From contig OZ024749.1 of NCBI GenBank assembly GCA_964016885.1, positions 806,001 through 870,000 of the forward strand: a stretch of DNA of 64,000 nucleotides. Direction: 5' to 3'. The notes below the pieces were generated by a model. It saw only the letters and a list, made by a program, of their open reading frames with translations. It ran no database searches and was not told the origin of the DNA. The position numbers and the translations under genes are program-made. Of the stretch, positions 27,090 to 64,000 are shown one piece after another. Numbering within the stretch: position 1 is the stretch's first letter; each line of letters opens with the position of its first letter. This DNA comes from Eledone cirrhosa (lineage: Eukaryota).

Positions 27090-27600
27090 TCGACTATGGG
27101 TGGTGCAACTTTATGCTCCAAATAAAGTTTCCGAATACAGCGTTAGATGTAGTTAAGAATGAGTCATATATCTTGATGGGAGACTTCAATGCACATGTTG
27201 GCACTGACCACCTGACATGGAAAGGAGTGATTGGAAGGAATGGCGACCCCGATCTAAATACGAATGGAGTGGCTTTACTAGAACTCAGTTCTAGCAATGG
27301 ACTCTCTATTATGAACACCTTCCAGCACAGAGACATCCATAAATATACATGGAGAATCTGGGACAGAGATCAATAATTGATTTTGTTATTGTCTTTGATC
27401 TCTTTGATTCTGTGCTGGATGTTCGTATTAAGAGAAGGGCTGAACTGTTAACTGATCATCTAGTTATCTGCAACTTGAAACTACCTAAAGCCAAAGAAGC
27501 CTATAAAACTGGGGTGTCCAGGGCGACCTACAGGATGAAGTGGGAAGCGTTGGTGGATAAGGAAGTCAGGACCAGGTTTGCAGATACTACTGCAATAAAT
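27090..27600 (+). mobile_element. RTE-like APE endonuclease fragment (mirrored at 63510-64000)
   Basis: MGDFNAHVG, NTFQHRDIHKYTW, IDFVIV, TDHLV. Confidence 0.8.
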
Positions 27601-27713
27601 CTTAGAAGTAAGTCCTCCTTGTTGCACTTGCGGTACAAGCAGGCATGAAGAATTACAGTAGAGACAGTAAAGGCATCCAAAGTTAAGATACACGTACATA
27701 CTTATATATATAT

Positions 27714-28277
27714 ATATATTTATAAAGAGGAAACTGCGAAGTTGAAGATGTTAGAGTCCCTTATTAATTGAGCTGTTATACATATTTCCATGACGATAGA
27801 TAACATGATTTCTGTAGACAGCAAAAGTTGGTTAAAAGGTAACATTTCCGAGGCAACCCTGGGTGGAAGGGAGCGGACTAAAAAATGTATGTTTTTGCTT
27901 TGGGTGTCTGCTCCCTTCTAACTTACAGAACATCCTGACAGCCCTGCACAGACGTGTGGTTGGCTGACCACTCAGCCACCGCCGTTATTTGTTCTCTCCG
28001 ACAACCCCATACGGTCAGTAGGAGTTCAAACCAGTCAAATCTTTTCACTGCTAGCTTTGATGACCAGCAGAATTTCAGTGCATTCGTACCTGTTACCCAT
28101 TTATGGTGGGACCATCAACCCCAAAGTGAGAAAGTTACCTACTGCTATGGTTAATATAACTTATCATAGAAAATATTTAAAGTTTCACAAGCCGAAAATG
28201 GTCTGTATATTATTCTGCCAACAATTAATAAGGGACTCTATAATCTTCAACTTCGCAGTTTCCTCTTTATAAATATA
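27714..28277. mobile_element. Non-coding element bounded by ~56-bp inverted repeats (mirrored at ~62833-63396)
   Basis: TATATTTATAAAGAGGAAACTGCGAAGTTGAAG... at 27714-27770 is reverse-complementary to 28222-28277. Confidence 0.65.
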
Positions 28278-28799
28278 CTCCATCATCCTTGTTGTCAAGA
28301 AGTAATATGACTTCGAGTGGTAGAAGTGGATTGCATCCTTGTATACCGAATATATATATATATATATATAAGGAAAAAAGATGAAATCGAAAATGCAACT
28401 GGAGTCTTTTTTTTTAAATATATATTTATTTGGTTCCTTTACCGGTTTCGCAGTTCTGCTTTTCAAAAGTAGAATTGAGATGGAGGGTTTGTGGTTTTTC
28501 TCACACATATATATATATATAACCTAATATATTCTTTCCATACTCTGTACCGATTGTGTTGTTATTTCTGTTTACCTTTTATATATATATATATTATTTA
28601 TATAGGAAAATGTTTAACCCCGACGGCTATTTCTGGACTCAGAATAGCCGTCGAAATGGCTTGAGCTTCTGCCGTCGGGGTTAAACATTTTCTTATTACC
28701 CACTCTACTACCCTAAGTATTGAGTACTCTGGTGCGTTATGGTCCATCTGGTTCCCTACCACACTTCCTGCGTTATTATTTATATATATATATATATAT

Positions 28800-29048
28800 A
28801 TCATCATCATTCCATTTTACGTCCGCTTTTCCCTGCTTGCAAGGGTGGGACGGGAACTGATTCTGGCTTGATTTCTAAAGCTGGATGCCCTTCCTAACAC
28901 CAACCTCATTTACAGTGAGTGCTGGGTGCTTTTTTGCCGTTGTACCTCCACGACCACTTTGCAGTGGAATGATATGGACCCCAGTCCCTATCATCTCATT
29001 TCTACAGCTGAGTAAACTGGAGCAATGAGAAATAAAGTGTCTTGCTCA
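28800..29048 (-). mobile_element. Headless copy of the RTE-tailed SINE (paralog of 62008-62321)
   Basis: RTE-type 3' end. Homology stops at CTTGCTCA followed by (TA)n. Confidence 0.8.
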
Positions 29049-29220
29049 TATATATATATATATATATATAAAGGCAACTTATTTTACATATTTCATTCAT
29101 TCTTTTACGATCGTTTCGGAGGGTTGATCATATTAATGTATTAGAGAACTGTATACTATCAGACAGCATATATGGGTTCGATCATACCGTCTTCTTCAGA
29201 AACAAACTATATATATATAT

Positions 29221-30562
29221 TACGCAGATGATCTAATGCTCATAGCTGAATCAATGGCTGAACTAGAGAAGAAATTCCAAACATAGAAGCATGGCCTAGA
29301 ATCAAAAGGTCTTAAAATTAACTTGTCTAAGATTAAAGTTCTAGTATGTAGGAAGGAAAATAGGGCACTGGTCCCCTCTGGGAAATGGCCATGCCCAGTG
29401 TGTAGGAAAGGAGTAGGCAGAAACTCCATTTTATGTCCCAAATGCAGAGTATGGGTGCATAAAAGATGTAGTGGGATCACAGGTAAGCTAACTAAGAACA
29501 TAGATTTTATATGTGGCCGGTGCTCAGGTGCAATAAGTAGTAGCAAGTGCCCACAGGATACTACCTCATTCCATTGCCCAGATGGTTCTATAGAAATAGT
29601 GGATACTTTCCGTTACCTGGGTGACAAAATCAGCAGTGGTGGAGGGTGTTCTGAAAGTACAGTAGCCAGAGTCAGAACGGGATGGAAAAAGTTCAGAGAG
29701 CTTATACCACTATTGGCCGCTAAAGGTATCTCTCTAAAAATGAAAGACAGGCTGTATGATGCCTGCATACGAACACCAATTCTACATGGCAGTGAGACAT
29801 GGGCATTGTGTGCAGAGGATCTACACAGACTGGAGAGGAACGAAGCTTGCATGCTCCGTTGGATGTGTAATAGTAATATATGTGAACGGCAAAGCATAAA
29901 TGAACTAAGTGAGAAATTAGGAATAAGAGGGATCAGATGCTGTTTACTCGAGAGAAGACTACGTTGGTATAGTCACGTGATGAGCATAAAAGACGACAGC
30001 TGTATAAAAAGTGCAGGGCAATCAAAATAGACGGTAGTTACGGAGTAGGTAGACCCAGAAAAACCTGGGACAACTTGATAAATTCCGACCTTACACACTT
30101 ACACATCTCCAAGACAATGTCACTGGACCGAGATCTTTGGTGCTACTCAGTAATACAGAAGACCTGCCTTGCCTAAGTTCAAAGTGAAACCTACTACAGT
30201 CAGTAGGCACCTCTTAACCAAAATACACCCCCGTTCCCTATCCCCACCCCCATCTACACCACCCCTTTCTCTGTAAAGTTATGTTGGTACCACAACATCT
30301 AGTCCTAAATAAATGAGGTTATGTAGGTGTCACAACAAAAACACACACAGTTCACGCTGTAATGTGGCCGTGTAGGTAACAGTAAAAACCTCCCAGTTCC
30401 ACACTGTAAATGTGGTTGGTGTTAGGAAGGGCATCCAGCCGTAGAAAACCTGCCAGACAGTCCTACACGAGCAAGACAACCAATCTTGCCCCAAGTGGGA
30501 CAATTGCCGTCTAAACCCATGCTAGCGTGGAAGATAGATTAAACGATGATGATGATGATGAT
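29221..30562 (+). mobile_element. 5'-truncated RTE copy (from YADD to tail)
   Basis: RT, PHD insert and 3' UTR, with stops and a frameshift. Confidence 0.9.
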
Positions 30563-31006
30563 ACATCTGTATACAGTGAAATTATAATGAAATTCACAAG
30601 GTATAAAAAATTTATTGTAATGAAAAATTCTTTATAACAAGATTGACCTAACACATCTGGAATGTGGCAGAAGATTGTAAAAAATGTTGTTATAATGCTA
30701 TTTGTTATAACGGAATTTTACCTATATATATATTGACTAGTCTGCAGCATTAAAAGAATGCTTATAGCCTACAGCAGACCCCAAAGTGTCACCCGGGGCT
30801 GACTGTCCCCCTCAAGCTACACTACTGTACACAACACACACATGTACGTACACACACATATATACACATACATATGTAATGGGGGTGGCAGGAGGAGGAA
30901 AGTGGGTGTGGGAAGAAGGTGGGGAAGAGGGAAGTATATCTGTTTTACAGTTCTGGAAGTAAAACTGGTTTATAGGCTCTGTAAGTGGCATAGATTTTGT
31001 ATATAC

Positions 31007-31355
31007 CAAAGGTTCTCAAACTTTTGGGGCCACCACTCCACTTACTGCCACGTAATGCCCTCAGCAACCCCACCCCTATTTCTAGACCTGCCTACACATA
31101 AGTTGTAAATAATATATGATAAATAAAATTGTTAATTTATATATAATAAATAATACAATATATACTATGTATAAATAAATAAATCTATATTTTTTATTTT
31201 ACTATATTTATATATAATATGTATCATTTGATATTTAATATAGTATTATATCATCTCTATCGCACCCCACCTCCACCGCACCCATAGGTCCCAGTGCCTC
31301 CTGGACCTTCTCAACGTCCCTTGGGTGGCGGTAGCGCCCACTTTGAGAATCTCTG
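31007..31355. mobile_element. hAT-type MITE
   Basis: TIRs CAAAGGTTCTCAAA / TTTGAGAATCTCTG; degenerate 8-bp TSD GTATATAC/GTGTACGC. Confidence 0.65.
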
Positions 31356-31800
31356 GTGTACGCAGTTCAGGCAACATCTGGTAAGTTTGTTCTGGATGAA
31401 GCCCTTGGCAAATAATATCTTGTAGCTTTCAGAGATACATAAATCACAACCCACATGTTGCCCTGTGTATGAGCCTGCTTTTTTGGAGTGTTTTCCAAAT
31501 GAGGATGAAGTATTTGTTCTTAAGGTCTCATACAGAGGTGGCCTGTGCGGTTTGGTTTGTCCAGTCTTCTGAGGGAGTGGGTATGGGCATACCACCAGGT
31601 CTTGAAACTATATAGCATAGTATATATGCCTTATTCAAAAGTCCCATGCCACACTTTGAGACTCCTGGTCTATAAGTTGTGTGTAGTATATTCGTAGATT
31701 TGTTAAATTACACATACATATTAATAAACACACTGGCACTTCTTTGTTGTAGCACAGATTTTTAAACAACCCTCTTTATTTTATTTTATTTTACTTTATT

Positions 31801-33528
31801 AATCAGAGAGCGAGTTGATCTAGATGAAATGCAGTTTGGGTTTGTGTCAGGTAAAAGTACCACAGACGCTCTTTTCCTTGTATGACAACTACAGGAGAAG
31901 TACTTAGCTTTTGTAGACCTGGAGAAAGCCTTTGACAGAGTCCCCCCGCTCCATTATCTGGTGGGCTCTTAAAAAACTAGGTGTAGATGAATGGCTTGTG
32001 AGAGCTATACAAGCTATGTATAAAGAAACAGTCAGTAAGGTTAGAATTAACAATGAATATTGTGAAGAATTTAGTGTAAAAGTTGGTGTTCATCAAGGCT
32101 CTGTCCTTAGCCCCCTCCTATTTATTATTGCCCTTCAGGCTATAACAGAGGAGTTCAAGACCGGCTGCCCATGGGAACTCCTATATGCAGATGATCTAAC
32201 TCTCATAGCTGAATCTATGGCTGAACTAGAGAAGAAATTCCAAACATGGAAGCATGGCCTAGAATCAAAAGGCCTTAAAGTTAACTTGTCTAAGATTAAA
32301 GTTCTAGTTTGTAGAAAGGAAAACAGGGCACAGTGTGTAGGAAAGGAGTAGGCAGAAATTCCATTTTATGTCCCAAATGCAAACTATTGGTACATAAAAG
32401 ATGTAGTGGGATCACAGGTAAACTATCTAAGAACGTAGATTTTATATGTGGCCGATGCTCAGGTGCAATCAGTAGCAAGTGCCCACAGGATACTTGCTCC
32501 TTCTATTGCCCAGATGGTTCTATAGAAATAGTGGATACTTTCCGTTACCTGGGTGACAAAATCAGCAGTGGTGGAGGGTGTTCTGAAAGTACAGTAGCCA
32601 GAGTCAGAACGAGATGGAAAAAGTTCAAAGAGCTTATACCACTATTGGCCACAAAAGGTTTCTCTCTAAAAATGAAAGGCAGATTGTATGATGCCTGTGT
32701 ATGAACAGCAATGCTACATGGCAGTGAGACATGGGCATTACGTGCAGAGGACCTGCGTAGACTGGAAAGGAACGAAGCATGCATGCTCCGTTGGATGTGT
32801 AATAGTAATATATGTGAACGGCAAAGCATAAATGAACTAAGTGAGAAATTAGGAATAAGAGCGATTAGATGCTGTTTACTTGAGAGAAGACTACGTTGGT
32901 ATGGTCACGTGATGCGCATGAAAGACGACAGCTGTATAAAAAAGTGCAGGGCGATAAAATTTGATGGTAGTTACAGAGTAGGTAGACCCAGAAAAACCTG
33001 GGACGATTTGATATATTCTGACTTTACACACTTGCACCTCTCTAAGACAATGTCACTGGACCGAGATCTTTGGCGCTACGCAGTAATACAGAAGACCCGC
33101 TTTGCCTAAGTACAAAGCGAAATCTACAGTCAGTAGGCACCTCTTAACCAAATATACCCCCCAATCCACTACCCTACCATATCCTCCCACTCCCACTAAC
33201 ATCACCCTCTCTCTGTAAAGTTGGTACCACAACATCCAGTCCAAATAAATGAGATAATGAGATCGAGATCGTGTAGGTGTCACAACAAAAAAACACACAG
33301 TCCACGCTACAATGTGGCTGTGTAGGTAACACGGTAAAAAGTTCCCAGTTCCACATTGTAAATGTGGTTGGTATTAGGAAGGGCATCCAGCCATAGAAAA
33401 CCTGCCAGATAGTCCTATATGAGCGAGACACGGTCACCCGACCAACCTTGCCTCAAGTGGGACAACTCCTGTCTAACCCATGCTAGCATGGAAAATGGAC
33501 GTTAAACGAAGATGATGATGATGATGAT
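31801..33528 (+). mobile_element. 5'-truncated RTE copy
   Basis: RT (MQFGF...LYADD), partial PHD, 3' UTR and (GAT)n tail. Confidence 0.9.
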
Positions 33529-34179
33529 AGTCTCATTTTAAAATCTTAACATGCTGTACCACATGAAACTGCATTATCAAGACATTCTTGAAAAGTATAA
33601 AACAGTACTATGACCGCATCACACTAAAAAATTAAAGTCTTTTCTCTAATAAACATTTTATCAATATAATCGTAATCTACACTCTTGAAAATATATCTCT
33701 GTAAAGTTTCATTACACAAATATGTTTTATAGACAAATTTACGAGGAGGCAAAATTAAGTGGTGGAGTTTAACTGTAGTTGCTTTGTTGATTGATATGCC
33801 CTGTTCCGAAATGTCTTGTTTTCTCAAAGGGCCGGTGTCACAAGTATGAAAATACACTTTTGACAGGTGCAATATGTTCGAACACGGAAGAGCCAAACTC
33901 TCACCATCATCGCCCCCATCTCTCTCATCTTCCCCATCTCTCTGTATAGTGAGCAAATGGGGTCCCACATACTGGCTGCCCCACAGCCCCGGCGGGAAGA
34001 ATGGAGAAAGTGTTTCTCCGGAGGATGGTAAGGGAGATGCGCTGGAAGAGCCATTCCATCTCGTGAGGCTCACACCTGCGGCTGGTCAGCTCATTTTTAC
34101 AATTTGTCCACTGGTAAAGATGCTATAAACATTTGAATTAACAAACTCATTTGTGTGTGTGAGTATGTATGTATATATA

Positions 34180-34790
34180 TCGTCATTATCATCACTGATT
34201 TTACGTCCATTAATCCATGCGCATGGGTTCGACAGGTCTTTTTTCAGCGCAGCATCTCTCCACCGTGTTCCTTTGTCATCTCAGCAATTTGAGATCAGTT
34301 CTCAACACTTCGTCTCAGGTTTTCCTTAGTCTATCTCTACTGTGGTTTCCTGCTACTGGGATTTCCTGGCACATCTTCACCCAGCAATCATCATCCATAC
34401 ACATCACATCTCCATACCAATGCCGTCTTCTCTTTTGCACACCACTTCAGATTCTTCATAAACCCAGTTTCTCCCTCAGTTTATCCAAACTCATCAATTC
34501 ATCCTTTCTCTCACATTTACATTGCACATCCAATGAAGCCTGGTTGCTTCATTTCCCTCCAATCACTGCCCATGTTTCACTACCATGCAGTATCGCACTT
34601 CGCACACAAACATCATAGTCATCCTTTTGTAAGTAGGGAGAAACCTTTTGATGTCAACATTGGGAGTAGCTCTCTAAACTTCTTCCATCCTATCTTTATT
34701 CTAGCTATTATGTTCTCAGGGCACCCTCCTCTGGCTGCTAATTAGGTCACCTAGATAGCAGAAGCTATCAACCAAGTTCTATGGATCCTT
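34180..34790 (-). mobile_element. Older RTE-family fragment
   Basis: FCYLGDLISSQRRV...LHGSETW...WYGDVM on the minus strand. Confidence 0.7.
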
Positions 34791-35469
34791 CCTGTGACGC
34801 TCTTCCACTTGTTTACCATTGTGCATCTACATACCAAGTCCTCCTCAACAACATTGATGTACACACTTTCCATAGGAGTGTATCATCATCATCATCATCA
34901 TCGTTTAACGTCTATTTTCCCTGTTAGCATGAGTTAGACGGGTTGTCATGTTTGAAGCAAGTCAGGTGAGGTGACAGTGTCATATTCATACAGAACTGCT
35001 ACTGACTTGATCTCTACATTTGGATGCCCTTCCTAATGCCAACCACATTTACAGTGAGCACGGTGCATTTTGTCATCACACTTACAGACCGCTTGAATAT
35101 GCAATATGTTTATGTATAATAAACATGAGTTTTGCTGTGAATATTTTAAAATCTGTGACCATGTCACAGCTATCTCTCTCTTTTACTAGTCAAGTACTGT
35201 ATAAACCTCTAAATATTAGAGAACCAATAATTAAACTATTTATATAAGTTTGCCCTAAATGTAAATGATCCTCTCCCACCAATGTTTTATATACAAAAAC
35301 CATATCAGTTTTAACCTTTTTTTATTTCAGTAGTGAGAAAATGTCACTGATGATGGATAAAAATCCAGAAATAGCTGATATTCTCACTGCTGCTGAGAGA
35401 GCTGTCATATGATCACAGCTTTCAGAAATATCAGAGCAAAACTCTTGTGTGTATATTATACATAAACAT

Positions 35470-36298
35470 TGGCCACGTGATGCGTATGAAAGACGACAGC
35501 TGTATAAAAAAGTGCAGGGCGATCAAAATTGATGGTAGTTACGGAGTAGGTAGACCCAGAAAAACCTGGGACGATCTAATAAATTCCAACCTTACACACT
35601 TGCACCTCTCTAAGACAATGTCACTGGACCGAGATCTTTGGCGCTACGCAGTAATACAGAAGACCTGCCTTGCCTATGTACAAAGCGAAACCTACAGTCA
35701 GTAGGCACCTCTTAACCAAATATACACCCCAATCCACTACCCTACCCTATCCTCCCACTCCCACCAACAACACCCTCTCTCTATAAAGTTGGTACCACAA
35801 CATCCAGTCCAAATAAATGAGATAATTGTTTCTACTTTTGGCACAAGGCCAGCAATTATCCCAGTGTATTACTGGTACTTTATTTTATCGACCCCGTAAG
35901 GATGAAAGGCAAAGTTAACCTCGGCAAGATTTGAACTCAGTCCGTAAAGAGACGTAACTGTGCTGCAAATCATGGCGCCCGACCCTCTACTGATACTGCC
36001 AATCCACCGCCCAAATAAATGAGATAATGAGATCGAGATAGTGTAGGTGTCACGACAAAAAACACACAGTCCACGCTGTAATGTGGCCGTGTAGGTAACA
36101 TGGTAAAAAGTTCCCAGTTCCACACTGTAAATGTGGTTGGTGTTAGGAAGGGCATCCAGCTGTAGAAAACCTGCCAGATAGTCCTATATGAGCAAGACAC
36201 GGTCACCCAACCAACCTTGACTCAAATTGGGACAACTCCCGTCTAACCCATGCTAGCGTGGAAAATGGACGTTAAACGAAGATGATGATGATGATGAT
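35470..36298 (+). mobile_element. Short 3' RTE copy interrupted by a SINE
   Basis: GHVMRMKDDSCIKKC plus 3' UTR and tail. Confidence 0.85.
35827..36010 (-). mobile_element. Full SINE with 18-bp TSD (CCAAATAAATGAGATAAT)
   Basis: TSD at 35809-35826 and 36011-36028. The empty site is visible in the RTE copy at 33241. Confidence 0.9.
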
Positions 36299-36597
36299 TG
36301 TTATAAGCTTTCATGTACACTCCTATAATGAACCATATTATGTTAATGCCACTTCCTATGTATTCATTTTTATACAAGTGTCTTGAATAACGCTGGTTTT
36401 GGTGAGGAAAACACTGACTATATAAGATGTAGGGCCACTGTATCAGCTGTTCAAATACAAATGGAAGCTTTCTAACATAAATGTTTGTAAGAAACATTTG
36501 TTAAGTTCTAAACACCAGCTGAACAATGAAAAAGTTATTTTACCAAATTCTCTTAAAATTCCCGTTTATTTATATACAATGACTGCTACTTCTACAA

Positions 36598-36875
36598 ATT
36601 GAGAGAGCACAGCTCCGATACTATGGACATGTGGTTAGAATGTCTCAGGAGAGAATTGCTGGACAGATTTTACGGGAAACACCAACAGGCAGGAGACCCA
36701 GGAGTAGACCCTGAGCAAGATGGTTGGATAACAACCATGAGCTTGGCTGGTCTTGCTTGGGGATCCAGCCAGATCAGTTGGGGACAGTTGCTTCTGACAG
36801 GACCCGCTGGAGGGAATATTTAAGGTCTCTGCCTCCACGACCCTCTCAGGAATAACTGGACAAAGAAGAAGAAGA
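36598..36875 (+). mobile_element. 3' end of another RTE-like LINE with (GAA)n tail
   Basis: RAQLRYYGHVVRM...GRRPRSRP. Confidence 0.65.
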
Positions 36876-37432
36876 CTTGTACCATGGTAAAGTTTAGGGC
36901 TTGGGTATAAAACATTTCAGACCAAGTTCATTTAGATGTCTTCAATTAAATTAACAACTTCGATAATAAACTACCCTTGGTTCTATAATAATTAGCTCTT
37001 TATTTCAATATTGTTATATTTTTATTTTAAAACATTTTATCATAAGCTGTGCACGTGTAAAAATGAAAAAAATGTTTATATTACTAAATCCCTCCAAATT
37101 CTTGATTTTCAAAACTATTTGAAAATAATTTCCACCCATCAACTTCATTGAAGTCTTTAAGGCAAGCTTGTTTCATTTTCTAGCTTGACAAACTCAAACT
37201 TTCATTATGTTAACTTTTTGGCCTTATCAACAGTCAGGTTTAGAATTTCTGCATACTTCAACCATGGATTTCAATATCTTCTGGTTGGCAGTGTATTTCA
37301 TAAGAAATATAGTAACAAAAAGGTTAATGTCTACAATAATGTTTTAAAATAGTAAACAGAGTTTTTGCATTGAAATTATTTTCTAAATTTTCTTTTTATA
37401 TTCCATTTTCTCCAGATACTACCGAATACAAG

Positions 37433-38590: not shown

Positions 38591-38877
38591 GATGATATTT
38601 GCCCTGTTCAAGATTGAAGATGTTTCCTCCAAAGTCACATAACATTATCTCAACACCTTAGCTGAGTAAATATATTTAGAAGTTGCTTTAGTTAAATAAC
38701 TGAGGTCATTATATTATGCTGGACCTAGGTGATACTTTCCCAAAGAAAGATTATGAAATAGCTTTAATATAAAACATAACTAGAAATACTTTACATCTTC
38801 AGCAAAATATTACATAATCTGAAATATATTCTATAAACATGTTTTTTATTTGAAAATTATAAATAGTGTGAAAACAT

Positions 38878-52338: not shown

Positions 52339-52614
52339 CTTGTATTCGGTAGTATCTGGAGAAAATGGAATATAAAAAGAAAATTTAGAAATTAATTTCA
52401 ATGCAAAAACTCTGTTTACTATTTTAAAACATTATTGTAGACATTAACCTTTTTGTTACTATATTTCTTATGAAATACACTGCCAACCAGAAGATATTGA
52501 AATCCATGGTTGAAGTATGCAGAAATTCTAAACCTGACTGTTGATAAGGCCAAAAAGTTAACATAATGAAAGTTTGAGTTTGTCAAGCTAGAAAATGAAA
52601 CAAGCTTGCCATAA

Positions 52615-52833
52615 CCCTTTAGCATTCACATTACTCTATATTTACTATTGTATTTTTGTCGTAAAGGCTTTATCACATAATTATCCCACATAATATCAAA
52701 TTTATGAGATTTTGGTATTATTTATTTTGAGAACAATAATTTAACATCAGTATGAGTAACCAGTTATGGCCAGTTTGAACAGAAAGAGGTGAGAGAATTC
52801 TGGCCGGATGTGGCTGGTTTAAATGCTAAAGGG
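52615..52833. mobile_element. piggyBac-type MITE upstream of serpin B only
   Basis: ATAA-CCCTTTAGCATT...AATGCTAAAGGG-TTAA; a single TTAA empty site is present in arm A (~37157). Confidence 0.88.
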
Positions 52834-54319
52834 TTAAGGATTTCAATAAAGTTGATAGATGGAAATTATTTTCAAATAATTTTGAAAATCAAGAATTTGG
52901 AGGGATTTAGTAATATAAACAATGTTTTCACTATTAAGTTAAGGTTTCCAAACAAAAGTTTGTTATATTCAATTCTGGTTGTATGAAACAAAACCCATTT
53001 TAATGGGTTCCAATTTAAATAAAAAATCTTCCAACATAATTTCATACAAGAACCATACGATAAGTTACAATATTAGTAATGAAATAAAAATAATTCTATT
53101 AAATCCTTCACAATTCTTCATTAATTAATTGAAATAGAGAGTATTTCATTAAAAATATGGTAAAAAAAAAAAAAGCGCTAATTAAATATATATTAATGAG
53201 GACATTAAAATTTCCACCAAAGATAGAGAAGAAAAACAAAAACCTGGTGGCAATTCTTACCCTCAGTACTCCACTCAGTTCATTAAAACATTTTAGAATC
53301 CTTGTTATATATATTTAGGAGATGGGTTTATTGAAGTTTGGGGCCATATGTGTTTTATTTGTTTCTTAATTCTAGATGAAGCTGTAGGGGGCCATCCAGA
53401 GTGTCTTGGGCAGTTTTAACCCTGGCAAAGTCTATCTCTCTCAATGTTAGAACATGGTGGGATGGACAGGTTTTCACAGACCAAGACAGTACTTGCTCAT
53501 ATACTTATAATATATCCTCATCAACATGTTCTCTTTGCCAGCAAAGATTAGACAGGTCTACACAGACCAAGTCCAAGACTTGCTCACATACAAACTTCAT
53601 CAATGAAATAAGCTGTTCATGAAATTAATGTTTAAGTGGCTGAGCATCACATAGAAACGTGCACCCTTAAAGTAATTTTTATGGAGATTCAGCATAAATC
53701 ACAGATACAGTCCACCTGATGGGCTTCCAAACAGTTTCTGCCTACCCTATTTTACTCACAAGATATGGGTTTAACTGAGGCTAGAGTGAACAATTGTTGC
53801 CTTAGATGTGTATTACTTTCGTGGGACTCATTATGTGGATCTTGTCACCAACGCTAACATTAGAAAGAGACTGCATGTTTGGCTAACATGTAGTGCTGAG
53901 ATCTTCCCATGGAATAATACAGAGACTATGACTATTGATACCACTGGAAGGTGGGGTGCATTAGCAGAATTGTTAAAGTGTGAGACAAAATGTTTTGCAG
54001 TATTTAGTTATGGCCTTTTACATTTTGAGTTCAAATCCTGCTGAGATCGATTTTGTTTTTCATCCTTCAGGGGTCGATAAAATAAAATACCAGTCTTATA
54101 CTGGGGTATGAGACTAAGACACCTGAAACATCACTTGATTAACTTGTGACCGAGTTATTATTAAGGCAATTTTTTTTAGACCCTAAAAATGTTTATACCT
54201 TATATAGACCTAAAGATATAAACTTCAGTTAACTGAAGATCTTTATTATTCATAAAAAAAAACAGCATCAAGTGATAAAATCCAAACTATTTACATATTA
54301 TACACTGCTGTAATATAAC

Positions 54320-54505
54320 TGTTTCTACGTTAGGCACAAGGCCAGTAATTACCCAGTGCATTAGTGGTACTTTATTTTATCGACCCCGTAAGGATGAAAG
54401 GCAAAGTTAACCTTGGCGGGATTTGAACTCAGAATGGCAAGGGCCGTAACTCTATACGTCAAAGCATGGCGTCCGACCCTCTACCAATACTGCCAATCCA
54501 CCGCC
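54320..54505 (-). mobile_element. Full SINE with 16-bp TSD (ACTGCTGTAATATAAC)
   Basis: TSD at 54304-54319 and 54507-54522. Confidence 0.9.
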
Positions 54506-54624
54506 TACTGCTGTAATATAACATTTCACATTCTCGGGAGAAAGAAACTCTTAGTATTTTATGGAACATTGAAATACTATGCTCAACACTAGTTGGTGTA
54601 GGACACTTAAACAAGATATTGACA

Positions 54625-54910
54625 GTTTTCTATTTGGTACAACCCCACTTCAACAGAACTGTATCAACACCAATAGCTAGGACTTACTTTAAATTGTTAA
54701 ATAAACACTTTCCCACACAACATAGGTACTACACTTTATTTGATAGGAACACAATTAGACTTTCCTACTCTACTACACCCAACTTAGCTCAACACTACTA
54801 AAGTAAATAGGCCTACTACCTCTGAAACCCAAACCTGGACAGGAGCCTTGTGTAATTGCCATAATAACGAAGTGTGCCCACTTGAAAACAAATGCTTGAT
54901 GAATGACATC
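54625..54910 (+). mobile_element. Penelope-like fragment
   Basis: FKLLNKHFP...LFDRNTIRLSYSTTPNL...CNC...CPLENKCL. Confidence 0.7.
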
Positions 54911-54992
54911 GTAAAAAATATAATATGTATAAATAAATATTATATATTTTTTATTTTACTATATTTGTATATATGTATCATTTGATATTTAA

Positions 54993-56158
54993 TCCTCAAC
55001 CACCCGGCTTCTCAACACCAACAGCTGATCGACCTGTTCCCAGAGTCCTTCCCTTCCATCGCGGTCCTCCCCCGTCGGCTTGGTGCTCCTTAGGAGCCCC
55101 AATCACAGACCTGGCCTTCGAGTCAATCTTCCAATCAAAGATGGTTGGCCTTGAGCAGCTGCTGAGGAATATCGAAGTTATCGAACCCCATCAAAGTTTC
55201 TTTATACTCAGGAACTACTTGTCTATTCCTAAGCTTCTGTATCTGCTCAGGGTCAGCCTCTCTCACAGATTTCCGTCCCGCCTCCAACGCTTCGACGACC
55301 TAATCTTCGAGAGACTCGAGTGCCTGGTCAATGTTAGATTCTCTCCAGAGTCCCGCGATTTGGGGGTCTTTGTCTTCGTAAGTGTTCGTCACCCTCTCTC
55401 CCCTACTTCCTTTCCTCCACCCTCGTGAGCAGCATCCTCTCCTCTCCAGCATAGACTAGTTCCAACAGGGAGCTGGGTGAAGCTCTCCAGCAATGGAGTG
55501 AGTTGGGCTTGTCTCTTCCTGAGAAGGTGGAGGACAGTCGAAGTCAGAGAACTTGGGACAGCATAAGTTCGAAGGCCACTTTCGTCTCCCACTTCATCCA
55601 ATCAGATCAGTTTGCAAGGTGCCGCTTACTATCTGCCAGCACCAAATACTCAGGCGACTGGGTCGATGCCCTACTCGTGGCCTTCTGAGCCTGGATGAAC
55701 TTCGTGTCTCCATCACCCTCAGAGTGGGAGCTGACGTCTGAATGGTTTTGAGGTGCCGATGCGGCAAACTCCTTGACTCCACAGTCTTTCTAGCCGCCTG
55801 AATGCCGGCCGCTTTGCGCGTCACACGGAGCTAAACCTCATTCTGAAGAGAGCTTTGGCCCAGGCGAATATCCCCTCAGTCTTGGAACCATCTGGGTTGT
55901 CCAGAAGTAACGGCAAAAGACCTGACGGTCTTTCCCTGTGCCCCTGGTCGAGAGGCAGGTGCCTTGTCTGGGACATCACTGATAGCGACTCTTTTGCTTC
56001 TTCCCACATCCTGGATGCTGCAGTTAGGGCGAGAGCCACAGCTTCCACAGCCAAGCAGAGTAAGACCCTCAAATACTCTGATCTGTCAGCCAGCTACATT
56101 TTTCAGCCTGTGGCTTTCGATACGTTTGGGGGTGTCGGGGCGCTGACTGCGGGGTTCC
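54993..56158 (+). mobile_element. CRE-like non-LTR retrotransposon C-terminal relic (restriction-like endonuclease)
   Basis: LGAPI, PKLLYLLR, SGDW, H..LN.ILKRAL, EPSGLSR..GKRPDG...WDIT...KY...FQPVAFDTFG. Confidence 0.78.
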
Positions 56159-56159
56159 T

Positions 56160-56329
56160 GGCCATTTCCCAGAGGGGACCAGTGCCCTATTTTCCTTCCT
56201 ACATAATAGAACTTTAGTCTTGAACAAGTTAATTTTAAGGCCTTTTGATTCTAGGCCATGCTTCTATGTTTGGAATTTCTTCTCTAGTTCAGCCATTGAT
56301 TCAGCTATGAGCATTAGATCATCTGCGTA
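56160..56329 (-). mobile_element. RTE fragment paralogous to the 5' end of 29221-30562
   Basis: Shares the 5' junction and a premature TAG with the left-arm copy. Confidence 0.85.
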
Positions 56330-56819
56330 ATATATATATATAGTTTGTTTCTGAAGAAGACGGTATGATCGAACCCATATATGCTGTCTGATAGTATACA
56401 GTTCTCTAATACATCAATATGATCAACCCTCCGAAACGATCATAAAAGAATGAATGAAATATGTAAAATAAGTTGCCTTTATTATCATTGTTAAACTAAT
56501 ATGTAATTTATATATATATATATATAGTTATGTAATAAAGAACATAAGGCAATTATTCCATTTACCAGTGGTTTCTTAAAAGCAAAAAATTTTGCTTTCA
56601 ATCCTCAGAATGAAAAAACCCTGGTCTGTTTATTGAATTTGGATTTTAAAAACAAAAATGCAATCTATATGAAAGTGAGGCTGGAGAAAGAAGGAAAGGA
56701 AAAATAAAATAAAACCACACATGCGAACACACACACACGTGTATATAAATACACACATACATACATACATACGCACATAAATATCAACACATCCATACAT
56801 ACACATACATATATATAAC

Positions 56820-56865
<46 letters not shown>

Positions 56866-57137
56866 CATGCATACGCATACATACATACAATCATACCTAT
56901 ATACACACGTACATACATACACATACATAAATGCGTACATATGCATGTACAAAATTAGAAAAATATACACACCTCTACATATTCACACACGCAAATAAAT
57001 ATAAGAAAAAATATATATAAAAAATAAAATAATTATACAGTTGACAGCGATACATGCGACGAGTAGATGAACAGACACGCGTGGTAAGCAATACACACGA
57101 ATGCACGTACACATACGTACGAAAAAAGTAAATACAT

Positions 57138-57180
<43 letters not shown>

Positions 57181-57285
57181 AAAGTTGTAGGGATACAAGT
57201 AAATATTTTTATAACTGATATAAAGCACTCGAGAAATTTTTGGAGTAGATATACAATATTAATAAATGGAAACATTTATAAAACC

Positions 57286-57361
57286 ATATTTATTTCATTA
57301 TACATATTTCAGGGATACCACATTAAATTATGGTATGTCTTCATCAGACAAAATACAATAT
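57286..57361 (-). ncRNA. Type I hammerhead ribozyme candidate (mirror copy)
   Basis: Same motif in the left palindrome arm. Confidence 0.6.
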
Positions 57362-57609
57362 ATAACAGTTTTACAAATAGGTTTGACGTACCCTTTAAAA
57401 TACAACCATTACTTTTGGAGGCTGTCTGGATAGTGATTTGTTTATATAATAAGTCATAGTGTTAAGACGTCTTTTTTCTTTCTCTCCGTCTTTTTCTAAT
57501 AGTGCTTAACACTATGACTTATTATATAAACAAATCACTATCCAGACAGCCTCCAAAAGTAATGGTTGTATTTTAAAGGGTACGTCAAACCTATTTGTAA
57601 AACTGTTAT

Positions 57610-57685
57610 ATATTGTATTTTGTCTGATGAAGGCATACAATAATTTAATGTGGTATCCCTGAAATATGTATAATGAAATAAATAT
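57610..57685 (+). ncRNA. Type I hammerhead ribozyme candidate
   Basis: TATTTTGT-CTGATGA-hairpin II-GAAA, self-complementary ATATGTAT, then A and ATGAAATA closing stem I. Confidence 0.65.
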
Positions 57686-57728
57686 GGTTTTATAAATATA
57701 GTTTCCATTTATATATATATATATATAT

Positions 57729-57760
<32 letters not shown>

Positions 57761-57768
57761 ATATATAT

Positions 57769-57800
<32 letters not shown>

Positions 57801-57808
57801 ATATATAT

Positions 57809-57840
<32 letters not shown>

Positions 57841-58170
57841 ATATATTATATATATATATCATCATCATCATCATCATCACCGTTTTACGTCCGTTCTTCC
57901 ACGCTAGCATGGGTTAGACGGGTTGTCCTGTTGTGGGCAGTGTCTGGTCGGCTGACCATGCCTTGCTCATACAGGAACTGATCTGGCTTGATTTCTACAG
58001 CTGGATGCCCTTCCTAACACCAACCTCATTTACAGTGAGTGCTGGGTGCTTTTTCGTGGCGCCTACACGTCCACTTTACAGTGTGGGCTGGGTGCTTTTT
58101 TGCCGTGGCACCTCCACGACCACCTTGCGGTGGGGGGGGGGGGGGGGGGGGGGCATATTGTTTATATGCT

Positions 58171-61100
58171 TCAGCATGTACCCATGGGAGGTCGGGTACC
58201 CTGTATTACTGCGTGACGCCAGAAGTCACGGTCGTGTGTCATTGACTTTGAGAGGTGTAGTTGGGTAAGGTCGGCTTTTATCACCTCATCCCAAGTCATC
58301 TTGGGTCTCCCCACTCCGCGGTTTCCATCAACTTCTAGTGCTCTGCACCTTTTTATGCAGCTGTCATCCTTCATACGCATCACATGTCCATACCAGCGTA
58401 ACCGCCTCTCCTGCACGCAGCATTTGATTCCTCTTATGCTCAGTCTCTCTCTCAATTCATTTATGCTTTGTCGTTCACGTATATTACTGTTACACATCCA
58501 TCGGAGCATGCAGGCTTCGTTTCTCTCTAATCTACGTAAGTCTTCCACCTTCAGCGCCCAGGTCTCACTACCATGCAACATCGCTGTTCGGATACACGCA
58601 TCATACAGTCTGCCTTTCATTCTGAGGGAGAAGCCTTTTGCAGCTAGCAGTGGTAGTAGTTCCCTAAACTTCTTCCATCCCGTTCTTACCCTAGTTATTG
58701 TACTTTCTGAGCACCCACCTCCGTTGCTAATTCGGTCACCTAGGTAGCAGAAGCTGTCTACTGTTTCTACAGGGCCCTCCCAGAGATTGGTGGTACTTGT
58801 TTCCTGTGGCTGTTTGCTTGCTGTTTCAGCACAGCTGCTGCATGTGAATCCTACATTCTTAATTAAGCTTCCTGAGATCCCGCTACATCTCTTGTGTACC
58901 CATTGTTTGCATTTGGGGCAAAGAATGGAGTTCCTACCTACACCTTTCCTACATACTGAGCAAGGCCATTTCCCTGAGGGGATCTGGGTTCTGTTTTCTC
59001 GTCTACTTATAAGGACCTTAGTCTTTGTCATGTTGACTTTGAGGCCCTTTCTCTCTAGTCCCTGCTTCCAGGTTTGGAATTTATTCTCTAGTTCTACCAT
59101 AGATTCAGCTATGAGTGCGAGGTCATCAGCATACAGGAGTTCCCATGGGCATCCGGTCTTAAACTCCTCCGTTATTGCCTGCAGGACTATGATGAACAGG
59201 AGAGGGCTAAGAACAGAGCCCTGGTGGACCCCAACCTGTACGCTAAATTCCTCGCTATACTCATTGCCAATCCTAACTTTGCTGACTGCTCCCCTATACA
59301 TGGCTTGTACCGCTTTCACAAGCCATTCATCTACTCCTAGTTTTCTAAGAGCCCACCAGATTACTGCACGTGGAACTCTGTCAAAGGCTTTCTCAAGGTC
59401 GACAAATGCCAAGTAGAGTGGCTTACTTTTAGCTAGGTACTTTTCCTGTAATTGCCTCACAAGGAAGAGCGCATCAGTGGTGCCTTTCCCTGGAACAAAC
59501 CCAAATTGCATCTCGTCTATATTCACCCGGTCCCTAATCAGCTGTGCTATAACTCTTTCTGTTACTTTCATGACCTGGTCCATCAACTTTATACCTCTAT
59601 AGTTTCCTCTATCTAGTGCATCGCCTTTACCTTTGTAGCAGTTGACAATGATGCTACTGCACCAATCTTTTGGTATGGCCCCCTCTAGTATTACCTGGTT
59701 AACGATACGTGTGGTTATAGTGTGACCTACAGACCCAGATGCCTTCAGCATCTCGGCAGCTATACCCGATGGACCGGTTGCCTTCCCTATCTTCATATCT
59801 CTGATTGCCTTACTTACTACGCTGCCGCTGACTTGTACTGCTGGTCCCTCTATAGGGTCTACGTGGGGTAGGGTCTCTTCTTCCCATGCATTCTCCTCAT
59901 TTAGTAATCTATCATAATGACTCTTCCATGCATCTTTCTTCTCAGCACTTGTGAGGGCAAGCTCACCTTTATCATTCCGGATACACTTCTCTCCAATGAC
60001 ATCACAACTATCTCTGACACACTGCCTCGCAATCTTGAATACCTCCTGTTTCTGGTCCTCACGTTGTAAAACATGCTTGAATTTTCTATCCTCTGCTTCC
60101 CTCCTAGCTAAGTATACTTGTCGCCTAGCTTCCCTCTTGGTCTCTATGTAATGTACCCTGCTCCCCCCGTTCTTCCATTCTTTACATGCCTGTCTCTTGG
60201 CCTTGACTGCTTCATCTACCTTATTGTTCCACCACCAAGTCACTCTCCTCCTGCTTGAGGTCTTACTCCAGCCACAAACCTCATCCGTCGCCTCTAGTAA
60301 GTTATTTTTTAGGAACTCCCAGTTCTCTTCTACGTTAAATGTCTCTATCTGTTCTTCTTTACTGTCGTAGGCGTTGAGTAAAATATCTTTAAATCTGTTA
60401 CTGGTTGAGGGGACTTTCAGCTTCCAGATCTTTCTTCTCCAGGTTGGCCTCTGTTTCAGGGCTCGTCTAGTTCTGACCGTGAGGTCGCTGACAACTAAGC
60501 TATGTTGGGATGTACATTCCTCACTAGGGAAGGCTTTTGTGTTTACGACCGTCCATCTGTCACGTCCTCTGATGAGGATAAAATCTAACTGACTAGAGTG
60601 CTCCCCTGATCTATAGGTGATCAGGTGGTTGTCGGGTTTTTTAAAGTTTGTGTTACATATCGACATGTCATTGGCGTCGCAGAATTCTAGAAGTCTGAAT
60701 CCTTCCTCATTCCTTGTGCCAACTCCATGGCCTCCATTGAAGCCGTCGCAGTGTTTACCTACGTGTCCGTTAAAATCTCCTGCAATGATTAGGAAGTCCT
60801 TGTCGTCTGTTAGAGCAGTAGTGTGTATTAGGGACTCGTAAAACCTATCCTTAAGTTCGTCTGGCAGCCCCGATTGGGGTGCGTAAGCTGATATTATTGT
60901 GGTAATTGTCTTATTCAGGACTAGTCTGAGTTTAATGATTCTTGCATTTACCCTGTACACTGAGATTACTTTATCTACCCACTTGTCAGCTAATAGTATA
61001 CCTACACCACCCATCCCATCGTCATTTCCCACCCAGAAAAATTTGTAGCACTGGCTTTTTCCTACAAGGACTCTAGCAGACCCTCCTCTCCATCTAGTCT

Positions 61101-61281
61101 CTTGCACACAGCATACATCAACTTCCTTTCGCTCTAGCATTTCTACGATTTCTCCTGCTCTTCCTTTCATTGAGCCTACATTGATGGTACCAACTCGGAG
61201 TTTTGGGCATTTGTCGACACTCGTAGGGGAGGGTCTCTGGGTTGGCGCTTCACGTGGGTGCTTGGTAGCTCGCAGATTCAT
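58171..61281 (-). CDS. RTE LINE polyprotein: APE endonuclease + reverse transcriptase + PHD-type zinc finger
   Basis: APE motifs VQETRW, SAYAPQ, GDFNGHVG, QLDFIL. RT motifs QFGF, FVDLEKAFD, GVHQGSVLSP, LYADD, FCYLG. C4HC3 finger. No stops or frameshifts. Confidence 0.93.
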   Translation of the reverse strand: MNLRATKHPREAPTQRPSPTSVDKCPKLRVGTINVGSMKGRAGEIVEMLERKEVDVCCVQETRWRGGSARVLVGKSQCYKFFWVGNDDGMGGVGILLADKWVDKVISVYRVNARIIKLRLVLNKTITTIISAYAPQSGLPDELKDRFYESLIHTTALTDDKDFLIIAGDFNGHVGKHCDGFNGGHGVGTRNEEGFRLLEFCDANDMSICNTNFKKPDNHLITYRSGEHSSQLDFILIRGRDRWTVVNTKAFPSEECTSQHSLVVSDLTVRTRRALKQRPTWRRKIWKLKVPSTSNRFKDILLNAYDSKEEQIETFNVEENWEFLKNNLLEATDEVCGWSKTSSRRRVTWWWNNKVDEAVKAKRQACKEWKNGGSRVHYIETKREARRQVYLARREAEDRKFKHVLQREDQKQEVFKIARQCVRDSCDVIGEKCIRNDKGELALTSAEKKDAWKSHYDRLLNEENAWEEETLPHVDPIEGPAVQVSGSVVSKAIRDMKIGKATGPSGIAAEMLKASGSVGHTITTRIVNQVILEGAIPKDWCSSIIVNCYKGKGDALDRGNYRGIKLMDQVMKVTERVIAQLIRDRVNIDEMQFGFVPGKGTTDALFLVRQLQEKYLAKSKPLYLAFVDLEKAFDRVPRAVIWWALRKLGVDEWLVKAVQAMYRGAVSKVRIGNEYSEEFSVQVGVHQGSVLSPLLFIIVLQAITEEFKTGCPWELLYADDLALIAESMVELENKFQTWKQGLERKGLKVNMTKTKVLISRRENRTQIPSGKWPCSVCRKGVGRNSILCPKCKQWVHKRCSGISGSLIKNVGFTCSSCAETASKQPQETSTTNLWEGPVETVDSFCYLGDRISNGGGCSESTITRVRTGWKKFRELLPLLAAKGFSLRMKGRLYDACIRTAMLHGSETWALKVEDLRRLERNEACMLRWMCNSNIRERQSINELRERLSIRGIKCCVQERRLRWYGHVMRMKDDSCIKRCRALEVDGNRGVGRPKMTWDEVIKADLTQLHLSKSMTHDRDFWRHAVIQGTRPPMGTC

Positions 61282-61587
61282 ATTTCATCTATTGATTCAG
61301 AGTTGCTCGTGTATTCCCAGCTCATCCATCCCTAACGGTGGTAAAATTGAGGGCTAGAAGGACAGTGGTGGTGGGGTAATGGCAGGGTGTGTTGGGATGC
61401 GCCAGAGGAGGAGAGAGTTAGTTAGGCAGGTAGTAGCAGCAGCAGCAGTGGAAATGGCATGCTAGGTTTGATTGGTCGAATAGACTATGGTGGTGTGTGG
61501 GGGTGGGGGGGAGGGAAATTGTGAGGTAGGAACTGAGGGTCGCATGGTAAATATCCAAGTTAATACTACATCAGTAAAATTAACAAT

Positions 61588-61928
61588 AATAACGTCATGA
61601 AAAAAGCTACTAAGAGAAACCCTCGAAAATTTATCGCTAATACAGCAGGGAAAATTTAACGCTAATACAGCAGGGAACATCATAATATTAACGACATGAA
61701 AAAGCTACTAAGAGAAACCCTCGAAAATTTATCGCTAATACAGCAGGGAAAATTTAACGCTAATACAGCAGGGAACATCATAATATTAACGACATGAAAA
61801 AGCTACTAAGAGAAACCCTCGAAAATTTATCGCTAATACAGCAGGGAAAATTTAACGCTAATACAGCAGGGAACATCATAATATTAACGACATGAAAAAG
61901 CTACTAAGAGAAACCCTCGAAAATTTAT
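61588..61928. repeat. 98-bp tandem repeat (~3.4 copies) at the 5' end of the intact RTE
   Basis: GCTACTAAGAGAAACCCTCG recurs at 61606, 61704, 61802 and 61900. Confidence 0.92.
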
Positions 61929-61950
61929 ATATATATATATTATATATATA

Positions 61951-62007
<57 letters not shown>

Positions 62008-62009
<2 letters not shown>

Positions 62010-62321
62010 GGAGGCACATGGCTTAGTGGTTAGAGCATTGGCCTTGCAATCGAAAGGTTGTGAGTTCAATTCTCAGACTGGGTGATGTGTTGTTTCCTTG
62101 AGCAAGACACTTTATTTCACATTGCCCCAGTTTACTCAGCTGTAGAAATGAGATGATAGGGACTGGGGTCCATATCATTCCACTGCAAAAAAGCACCCAG
62201 CACTCACTGTAAATGCGGTTGGTGTTAGGAAGGGCATCCAGCTGTAGAAATCAAGCCAGAATCAGTTCCCGTCCCACCCTTGCAAGCAGGGAAAAGCGGA
62301 CGTAAAATGGAATGATGATGA
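62008..62321 (+). mobile_element. tRNA-headed SINE with RTE-derived 3' tail
   Basis: A box TGGCTTAGTGG and B box GAGTTCAATTC. The 3' part matches the 3' UTR of the intact RTE and ends in (GAT)n. Confidence 0.85.
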
Positions 62322-64000
62322 TATACATAAATAATAACGCAGGAACTGTGGAAAGGAACCAGATGGACCATAACGCACCAGAGTACTCAATACTTAGGGT
62401 AGTAGAGTGGGTAATAAGAAAATGTTTAACCCCGACGGCAGAAGCTCAAGCCATTTCGACGGCTATTCTGAGTCCAGAAATAGCCGTCGGGGTTAAACAT
62501 TTTCCTATATAAATAATATATATATATATAAAAGGTAAACAGAAATAACAACACAATCGGTACAGAGTATGGAAAGAATATATTAGGTTATATATATATA
62601 TATGTGTGAGAAAAACCACAAACCCTCCATCTCAATTCTACTTTTGAAAAGCAGAACTGCGAAACCGGTAAAGGAACCAAATAAATATATATTTAAAAAA
62701 AAAGACTCCAGTTGCATTTTCGATTTCATCTTTTTTCCTTATATATATATATATATATATTCGGTATACAAGGATGCAATCCACTTCTACCACTCGAAGT
62801 CATATTACTTCTTGACAACAAGGATGATGGAGTATATTTATAAAGAGGAAACTGCGAAGTTGAAGATTATAGAGTCCCTTATTAATTGTTGGCAGAATAA
62901 TATACAGACCATTTTCGGCTTGTGAAACTTTAAATATTTTCTATGATAAGTTATATTAACCATAGCAGTAGGTAACTTTCTCACTTTGGGGTTGATGGTC
63001 CCACCATAAATGGGTAACAGGTACGAATGCACTGAAATTCTGCTGGTCATCAAAGCTAGCAGTGAAAAGATTTGACTGGTTTGAACTCCTACTGACCGTA
63101 TGGGGTTGTCGGAGAGAACAAATAACGGCGGTGGCTGAGTGGTCAGCCAACCACACGTCTGTGCAGGGCTGTCAGGATGTTCTGTAAGTTAGAAGGGAGC
63201 AGACACCCAAAGCAAAAACATACATTTTTTAGTCCGCTCCCTTCCACCCAGGGTTGCCTCGGAAATGTTACCTTTTAACCAACTTTTGCTGTCTACAGAA
63301 ATCATGTTATCTATCGTCATGGAAATATGTATAACAGCTCAATTAATAAGGGACTCTAACATCTTCAACTTCGCAGTTTCCTCTTTATAAATATATATAT
63401 ATATATAAGTATGTACGTGTATCTTAACTTTGGATGCCTTTACTGTCTCTACTGTAATTCTTCATGCCTGCTTGTACCGCAAGTGCAACAAGGAGGACTT
63501 ACTTCTAAGATTTATTGCAGTAGTATCTGCAAACCTGGTCCTGACTTCCTTATCCACCAACGCTTCCCACTTCATCCTGTAGGTCGCCCTGGACACCCCA
63601 GTTTTATAGGCTTCTTTGGCTTTAGGTAGTTTCAAGTTGCAGATAACTAGATGATCAGTTAACAGCTCAGCCCTTCTCTTAATACGAACATCCAGCACAG
63701 AATCAAAGAGATCAAAGACAATAACAAAATCAATTATTGATCTCTGTCCCAGATTCTCCATGTATATTTATGGATGTCTCTGTGCTGGAAGGTGTTCATA
63801 ATAGAGAGTCCATTGCTAGAACTGAGTTCTAGTAAAGCCACTCCATTCGTATTTAGATCGGGGTCGCCATTCCTTCCAATCACTCCTTTCCATGTCAGGT
63901 GGTCAGTGCCAACATGTGCATTGAAGTCTCCCATCAAGATATATGACTCATTCTTAACTACATCTAACGCTGTATTCGGAAACTTTATTTGGAGCATAAA
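62099..64000 (-). repeat. Right outer block of inverted duplication (runs to the window edge)
   Basis: Reverse complement of 27110-29048. Confidence 0.93.

Follow-up and report, generated by a model that had tools for sequence, protein, structure and literature searches.

Organization of the duplicated serpin locus

A 64-kb stretch of the Eledone cirrhosa genome (GCA_964016885.1, contig OZ024749.1, positions 806,001 to 870,000; hereafter the window, numbered from its first base) was found to carry two intact, nearly identical serpin coding exons within a broken inverted duplication. Copy A (37433-38590, plus strand) and copy B (51181-52338, minus strand) are each open reading frames (ORFs) of 385 residues, and stand tail-to-tail across 11.7 kb. 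The encoded proteins differ at four of 385 residues, three of which occupy positions P3, P2 and P1' of the reactive-centre (bait) loop. Outside the loop we identified a single residue change (M/L; 99.7% identity of the scaffold) together with five synonymous changes. Both copies comprise the full-length serpin domain PF00079 (E ~1e-108, residues 17-383), and their matches in the Protein Data Bank start at 1.9e-69. Inhibitory serpins follow a consensus of small residues in the hinge preceding the reactive centre. The hinge of both copies, E-E-G-T-E-A-A-A-A-T, is of this small-residue, inhibitory type with P1 at the canonical distance, and, judged by sequence, A and B belong to the inhibitory serpin superfamily. 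An AlphaFold model (mean pLDDT 43) was too poor for use. Searching the window by tblastn revealed no further serpin, either whole or as a fragment.

Upstream of the coding sequence, a pyrimidine tract followed by CAG (37390-37413, plus strand, in A; identical in B, where the exon would start at 52357) constitutes a predicted splice acceptor 19 bases before the ATG of both copies. The codons between acceptor and ATG resemble the junction residues of leader-bearing Octopus proteins. Neither ORF itself encodes a signal peptide, the absence of which is typical of intracellular clade-B-like serpins; some relatives carry such a leader, and the acceptor is conserved in both copies. However, tblastn and two scans of the window, reaching 37 kb upstream of A and 11.6 kb upstream of B, returned no convincing leader (signal-peptide) exon for either copy, a search that a diverged, split or non-coding exon would escape; the best score was 2.4, compared with 23.5-45.2 for four leaders of the same group and 8.8 for that of a paralogue. 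Within 52400-56158, the sole match on the strand of B to three strong splice-donor patterns lies at 53256-53264 (minus strand), ~900 bp upstream of the B acceptor, and this donor-like site could end a non-coding first exon of B. Origin of one copy as a retrocopy was rejected, as both copies share sequence beyond the AATAAA signal and, ahead of the acceptor, 356 bp.

Comparison of the arms by self-BLAST of the window, followed by global alignments, resolved three inverted blocks: block 1 (27110-29048 / 64000-62099), block 2 (29068-29391 / 56482-56159) and block 3 (37058-39080 / 52936-50810). These are nested and colinear, with similar axes (42,775-45,555), and lie essentially where a preliminary description of this DNA had placed three mirrored blocks, and the spacer between the arms, previously put at ~11.7 kb, measures 11,729 bp (39081-50809). 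That description had further proposed an inverted duplication of at least 37 kb. The inverted duplication itself is borne out; as a duplicated length, 37 kb is not, being the outer span of a structure in which alignable sequence makes up only 34% in arm A and 31% in arm B (4,116 homologous columns with 45 substitutions).

Block 1 is divided into an outer part (27110-28755, plus strand, in arm A; 62355-64000, minus strand, in arm B, where it runs off the window edge), consisting of a nest of transposon fragments with one difference in 1,646 bp, and an inner part of repeat and short interspersed element (SINE) sequence (28756-29048, plus strand; mirror 62099-62354) with 8/256 substitutions and two indels. 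Block 2 comprises a unique stretch and an RTE fragment (29068-29391, plus strand, in A; 7/324 substitutions), and in B (56159-56482, minus strand) its end is a junction where the RTE fragment is cut short. Block 3 holds 356 bp of putative intron end, the serpin exon and a 3' region with AATAAA (37058-39080, plus strand, in A; 50810-52936, minus strand, in B). Arm A alone carries 29392-37057, mostly RTE and SINE copies. Sequence confined to arm B consists of 52937-56158 (AT-rich DNA, SINEs and decayed retroelement fragments) and, between blocks 2 and 1, of 56483-62098 (TA runs, a foldback element, a full-length RTE and a SINE head). For 29392-37057 and 52937-56158 no mirror was found. The spacer contains a 28-bp satellite and transposon fragments, with no non-transposon Pfam match and no mirror within 39081-50809. 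Six shuffle-controlled local alignments covered sub-regions of the unaligned middles and of both spacer sides; four were at background and the other two corresponded to SINE-family fragments. A Pfam scan of 63 ORFs of at least 65 residues from the unaligned regions gave three weak matches, all below cut-off (a reverse transcriptase (RT), a helix-turn-helix and one likely chance match).

Private insertions had previously been suggested for each arm. This holds for a miniature inverted-repeat transposable element (MITE) in B (52615-52833), which has short terminal inverted repeats and lies in a TTAA site, with one flank mutated, that A has in its empty form; some of the other cases proved to be deletions in the opposite arm. 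For example, arm A has lost the SINE head still kept in arm B at ~62009-62098, and the arm B junction at 56159 cuts two retroelement fragments. In the 3' region of A, a truncated SINE (38871-38984, minus strand) faces a 12-bp remnant-like stretch in B and no clean empty site, and the SINE was rejected for dating on that ground; the MITE provides no clock either, the only relative found in the window being 81.5% identical. Hence no arm-private element was usable for dating the duplication. From the nesting and colinearity of the blocks, with axes close together, we infer a single inverted duplication, later broken by deletions and transposon traffic that left three alignable islands.

Identity strata and evidence for gene conversion

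Divergence between the arms is stepwise, as previously proposed, with strata ranging from 0.06% to ~10% and no uniform divergence along the arms. In addition to the values for blocks 1 and 2 given above, block 3 opens with a divergent upstream edge (37058-37160, 10/103 substitutions) followed by a conserved stretch (37161-37413, 1/253), the serpin coding sequence (12/1158) and the downstream regions 38591-38870 (2/261) and 38985-39080 (4/96). Near-total identity, reported earlier for two regions, was recovered for 27110-~28750, and not for ~37160-38790, where 37161-38790 holds 14 substitutions, six of which fall within an 11-bp patch encoding the serpin reactive loop. The MITE at 52615-52833 lies exactly where it had been placed, and does mark a step in identity.

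The outer block, with 1/1646 substitutions (0.06%), stands out against the adjoining transposon-derived sequence of the inner part of block 1 and of block 2 (15/580, 2.6%; p=2e-8). In the non-coding alignment (2,939 columns, 33 substitutions) the longest identical run extends for 1,311 columns, a length reached by none of 20,000 permutations, and by two of 20,000 once clustered changes had been combined into 22 events; dispersion tests on the merged events were weaker (702/20,000 and 90/20,000 permutations). Further, all five TA runs of the outer block are equal in length between the arms, and the next TA run is unequal. The contrast of 0.06% with 2.6% in adjoining DNA, together with the equal TA runs, makes a very recent homogenisation of the outer block likely.

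In the serpin, outside the loop, synonymous divergence amounts to 5/~230 sites (2.2%) compared with the 2.6% of the inner part of block 1 and block 2 (p=1), and non-synonymous divergence to 1/916, such that purifying selection alone accounts for most of the coding identity. The non-coding DNA flanking the exon is less diverged (3/514, 0.6%) than the edges of block 3 (10/184, 5.4%; p=2e-4) and than the inner part of block 1 and block 2 (p=0.015), and the 3' half of the serpin with its proximal 3' region is closer between arms than the 5' half (p=0.03), which together with the identity step at the MITE favours some conversion; the boundaries in the flank, edge and half comparisons were set after inspection of the data. 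Low divergence of the flanks could also arise from constraint rather than conversion. The recent conversion tracts that the preliminary description had drawn over the serpin find weak support in the flanks and none in synonymous divergence. Good support for recent conversion is confined to the outer, transposon-filled block, and over the serpin it is unproven.

Divergence concentrated in the reactive-centre loop

Six of the 12 coding differences between the copies lie within 11 bp of the reactive-centre loop (38469-38479, plus strand, in A; 51292-51302, minus strand, in B), a clustering seen in none of 200,000 permutations. Codons 346, 347 and 349 differ by two bases each, encoding T/M, L/A and C/S in A and B, respectively, and residue 348 is methionine in both. 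In alignments, residue 348 falls opposite the final residue of short (cleaved-form) antichymotrypsin chains and, on ungapped extension, opposite the ends of 1hle_A, 7b2t_A and 7zas_A. As these are C-termini of cleaved-form serpin chains, Met348 is assigned to P1 and the replacements to P3, P2 and P1'. From P4 to P1' the loop reads M-T-L-M:C in A and M-M-A-M:S in B, the colon marking the bond after P1. The copies possess a significant local peak of divergence at a functional site, one of the features by which systems with selected divergence peaks are recognized.

Comparison with octopod relatives provides a direction for the change. The P7-P6' segment of B matches that of an Argonauta protein at 11/13 positions and that of the Octopus vulgaris protein P0007 at 10/13, whereas the segment of A matches them at 8/13 and 7/13, respectively. 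The closer resemblance of B suggests that its loop (M-A-M:S) is likely ancestral and that of A (T-L-M:C) derived, which would place all three replacements on A.

At one patch codon, the change from TCA to TGT has a stop-free path only through a silent step, and the loop as a whole needs at least one, plausibly two, silent steps. Two such steps in ~2.5 sites at the 2.2% divergence of the scaffold have a probability of ~0.0015. Being this improbable, they imply either a patch of greater age than its flanks, the reading that we favour, or its arrival as a block.

Octopod relatives of the serpin pair

In a protein search that scored 8,000 candidates and gave 6,491 matches, relatives were taken from the best 120 of these 6,491. 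The closest among the matches listed were Octopus and Argonauta proteins with 71-79% identity, and among the matches listed of two protein searches none was closer than 76-79% (83% over the C-terminal region). In a tree built from the scaffold only (22 of 24 rows, with fragments P0014 and P0015 excluded), A and B form their own branch with support of 100/100.

Among the Octopus paralogues P0003-P0015, scaffolds tend to group by species, and loop types (N-Y-M; A-M/L-S) recur across species. Paralogues of the same species have ~90-95% scaffold identity and often only 1-3 of 13-16 loop residues in common. For example, the loop of O. bimaculoides P0004 matches that of O. sinensis P0003 (11/13), yet its scaffold groups with P0005 of its own species (97/95). 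Fragment P0015 is likewise nearer to P0004 of its own species (285/303) than to O. vulgaris P0007 (272/303), which has the same loop type. Grouping by species is not always strong, the O. vulgaris pair having support of 89/93. At the protein level, this pattern is an indirect sign of concerted evolution with protected loops in the genus, and the Eledone pair, if real, points to concerted evolution in octopod serpins.

Explanations for the divergence pattern

We favour, with about even confidence that it is correct, an explanation in which selection retuned the loop of A and protects the new loop, while occasional arm-to-arm conversion levels the flanks of a decaying duplication. A single inverted duplication would have been followed by erosion through deletions and transposon traffic; conversion tracts would stop at large heterologies, the MITE among them, and a single tract of very recent date would cover the outer block; and selection would remove tracts that cross the new loop of A, such that divergence accumulates only there. 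Serpins inhibit proteases by an established suicide mechanism, through which A and B would be expected to act. With its Met-Ser bond, B would inhibit elastase- or chymotrypsin-like proteases. Leucine at P2 possibly favours papain-like enzymes, and with this residue and cysteine at P1', A is predicted to have shifted in specificity, possibly toward papain-like cysteine proteases. From the loop residues, plus-strand copy A likely targets a different protease than B.

Several observations weigh against this explanation. Since the synonymous divergence of the serpin resembles the divergence of other blocks, conversion over the exon is not needed; only a single silent step in the loop is strictly required, and among the candidate steps one is a CpG transition. 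Further, the peak lacks shoulders, the nearest other differences being 197 bp upstream and 259 bp downstream, which fits a one-step event better than long protection from conversion. Edge divergence may reflect mutation near indels, and 11/34 gaps among the 35 non-loop substitutions (four at the ragged edge excluded) are of 10 bp or less. Finally, five of the six A-specific bases (38468-38479) lie in a perfect 4-bp hairpin stem, an arrangement that 21 of 504 stop-free alternatives also reach and that hints weakly at template switching.

The same observations lend themselves to an alternative that we regard as possible, if somewhat doubtful: that A and B are real young paralogues with ~2-3% neutral divergence, the patch having arisen in one step, by short-patch conversion from an unseen third paralogue (import) or a single multi-base mutation, and been tolerated or selected, with only the outer block homogenised. 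The match of 2.2% and 2.6%, the frequency of clustered substitutions in the arms and the hairpin stem all suit such an event, as do the two contiguous runs (four and two bases) of which the patch consists, with no other difference for ~200 bp on each side. A role of conversion plus selection in loop hypervariability is, moreover, already described in a published review (PMC3966226). Conversely, searching the window for a donor of the patch gave no candidate when up to 1 mismatch in 11, 2 in 15 or 4 in 19 bases was allowed, and no single micro-inversion accounts for it (among micro-inversion, reversal and complement of the B segment, the best leaves 4/6 differences unexplained). The exon flanks (3/514) are also lower in divergence than the inner part of block 1 and block 2, and than the block edges.

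Compatible with either account of the loop, but unlikely, is an origin of the locus in two separate duplications, namely of a 2-kb inverted unit with the serpin terminal exon and, later, of the inverted outer transposon nest. No homology joins block 2 to block 3 (7.7 kb in one arm against 3.2 kb in the other), and block 3 closely coincides with the exon, its acceptor and the poly(A) region, as such a unit would. However, two separate events would have to yield three blocks that are inverted, nested and colinear about similar axes, and two overlapping deletions, in line with the deletion-like junction at 56159, explain the gap.

We consider an assembly artefact distinctly unlikely. Under this explanation two alleles were joined head-to-head, or copies were blended in polishing, the identity steps being haplotype blocks and the loop a balanced polymorphism. 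The values of 0.06-3% lie within an allelic range, and the outer block is nearly perfect between arms, microsatellites included. False heterotype duplications are known to arise where haplotypes diverge, and are described as tandem copies with a gap or as copies on separate contigs (10.1101/2020.05.22.110833). The copies in the window are neither, being inverted on one contig; the window contains zero N, the spacer lacks an internal mirror, and both ORFs are intact. The spacer satellite also runs in one orientation (102 units forward, 0 reverse) with no strand switch, and two thirds of each arm are non-homologous.

Highly improbable, finally, is an invertible cassette. As the search for a leader exon came back empty over 37 kb upstream of A and 11.6 kb upstream of B, the near-identical outer arms may sit inside intron 1, and a crossover between them would flip the interior and swap the coding exon (T-L-M:C or M-A-M:S loop) served by each promoter and leader. 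If this were true, and if only one side had a promoter or the two sides differed between tissues, the palindrome would allow serpin specificity in an octopod to be switched by inversion, in the germline or somatically.

Comparison with known systems

The Eledone pair is an instance of an already known kind of serpin evolution. Hypervariability of the serpin reactive centre has been attributed to conversion plus selection, and differences concentrate in the reactive centre through silent and replacement steps, as between A and B (PMC3966226). In contrast to an insect serpin treated in that review, with tandem exons under alternative splicing, the Eledone copies are inverted, share a 99.7% identical scaffold and have a peak of only 11 bp. 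Human SERPINB3 and SERPINB4 are likewise young serpin duplicates with loop differences, which accompany different targets (cysteine versus serine proteases); they are, however, only 92% identical with selected sites also outside the loop, whereas the octopod pair, known from sequence alone, has one scaffold change (PMC4136820).

A local peak of divergence at a functional site amid low divergence between paralogues is also found in the red/green opsins and in Drosophila CG18281/CG17637, and large insertions disrupt pairing in paralogues under conversion (PMC3924837, PMC2588116). In those systems the peak, demonstrated by means of outgroups, extends over an exon or ~200 bp, whereas that of A and B lacks shoulders. 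Primate X palindromes resemble the present structure in having inverted arms around a spacer, instability at the spacer and inner arms, and preserved genes (PMC8327919). Their arms, however, measure 8-140 kb with <0.2% mean divergence; here such identity is visible within the window over only 1.6 kb (1,646 bp at 99.94%, against near-identical arms of at least 8 kb) and the rest is patchy. A further parallel is provided by the Octopus "leukocyte elastase inhibitor-like" paralogues P0003-P0015, which belong to the same subfamily (71-79%) and likewise combine a conserved scaffold with a divergent loop; in comparison, A and B stand on their own branch and have far fewer loop differences. In literature titles and the openings of abstracts, with few subscription journals covered, we found no report of loop diversification or concerted evolution of cephalopod serpins.

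If real, the pair would constitute an unusually clean natural experiment, in which one scaffold residue and three loop residues differ and the ancestral state is known from relatives. How P3, P2 and P1' influence the choice of target would be directly assayable, and one sister genome would make it possible to test stepwise selection behind a conversion barrier against short-patch import.

Transposable elements and satellites in the window

The element names used here (SINE, MITE, piggyBac-type, RTE, CRE-like, Penelope-like and Tigger-like) are our assumption from sequence features; among transposon features, Pfam confirmed only RT, endonuclease and PHD domains. An apparently full-length non-long-terminal-repeat (non-LTR) retroelement occupies ~57860-61560 on the arm B side, with an intact frame of 1,037 codons (58171-61284, minus strand) that encodes an endonuclease, an RT and a PHD-like finger; its (TGA)n tail enters a TA run. 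Its state suggests that the element was likely active recently, and an RTE with a zinc finger is reported from O. vulgaris (PMC9115989). RTE 3' fragments at 20193-21120, 29221-30562, 31802-33531 and 35470-36298, on arm A and upstream of it, are 84-94% alike and reflect either independent insertions or local duplication.

The MITE at 52615-52833, which we take to be piggyBac-type, has a relative in a second TTAA-flanked MITE at 49473-49677. Block 1 includes a foldback or MITE-like element with 56-bp terminal inverted repeats (27715-28277) and a short hairpin element (~28607-28690), and 57148-57825 forms a foldback-like self-palindrome of 680 bp at 83% identity. A DNA-transposon-like helix-turn-helix fragment, presumably Tigger-like, lies at 26358-26645 (Pfam HTH_29, below cut-off). 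Satellites were identified at 22930-25001 (37 bp x 56) and 41066-44206 (28 bp x 111). A 234-bp retroelement fragment with 77% similarity to 55873-56106 breaks a further array with a 40-bp unit (4166-6930) twice, at 4665-4898 and 5761-5994, which suggests higher-order duplication of the array.

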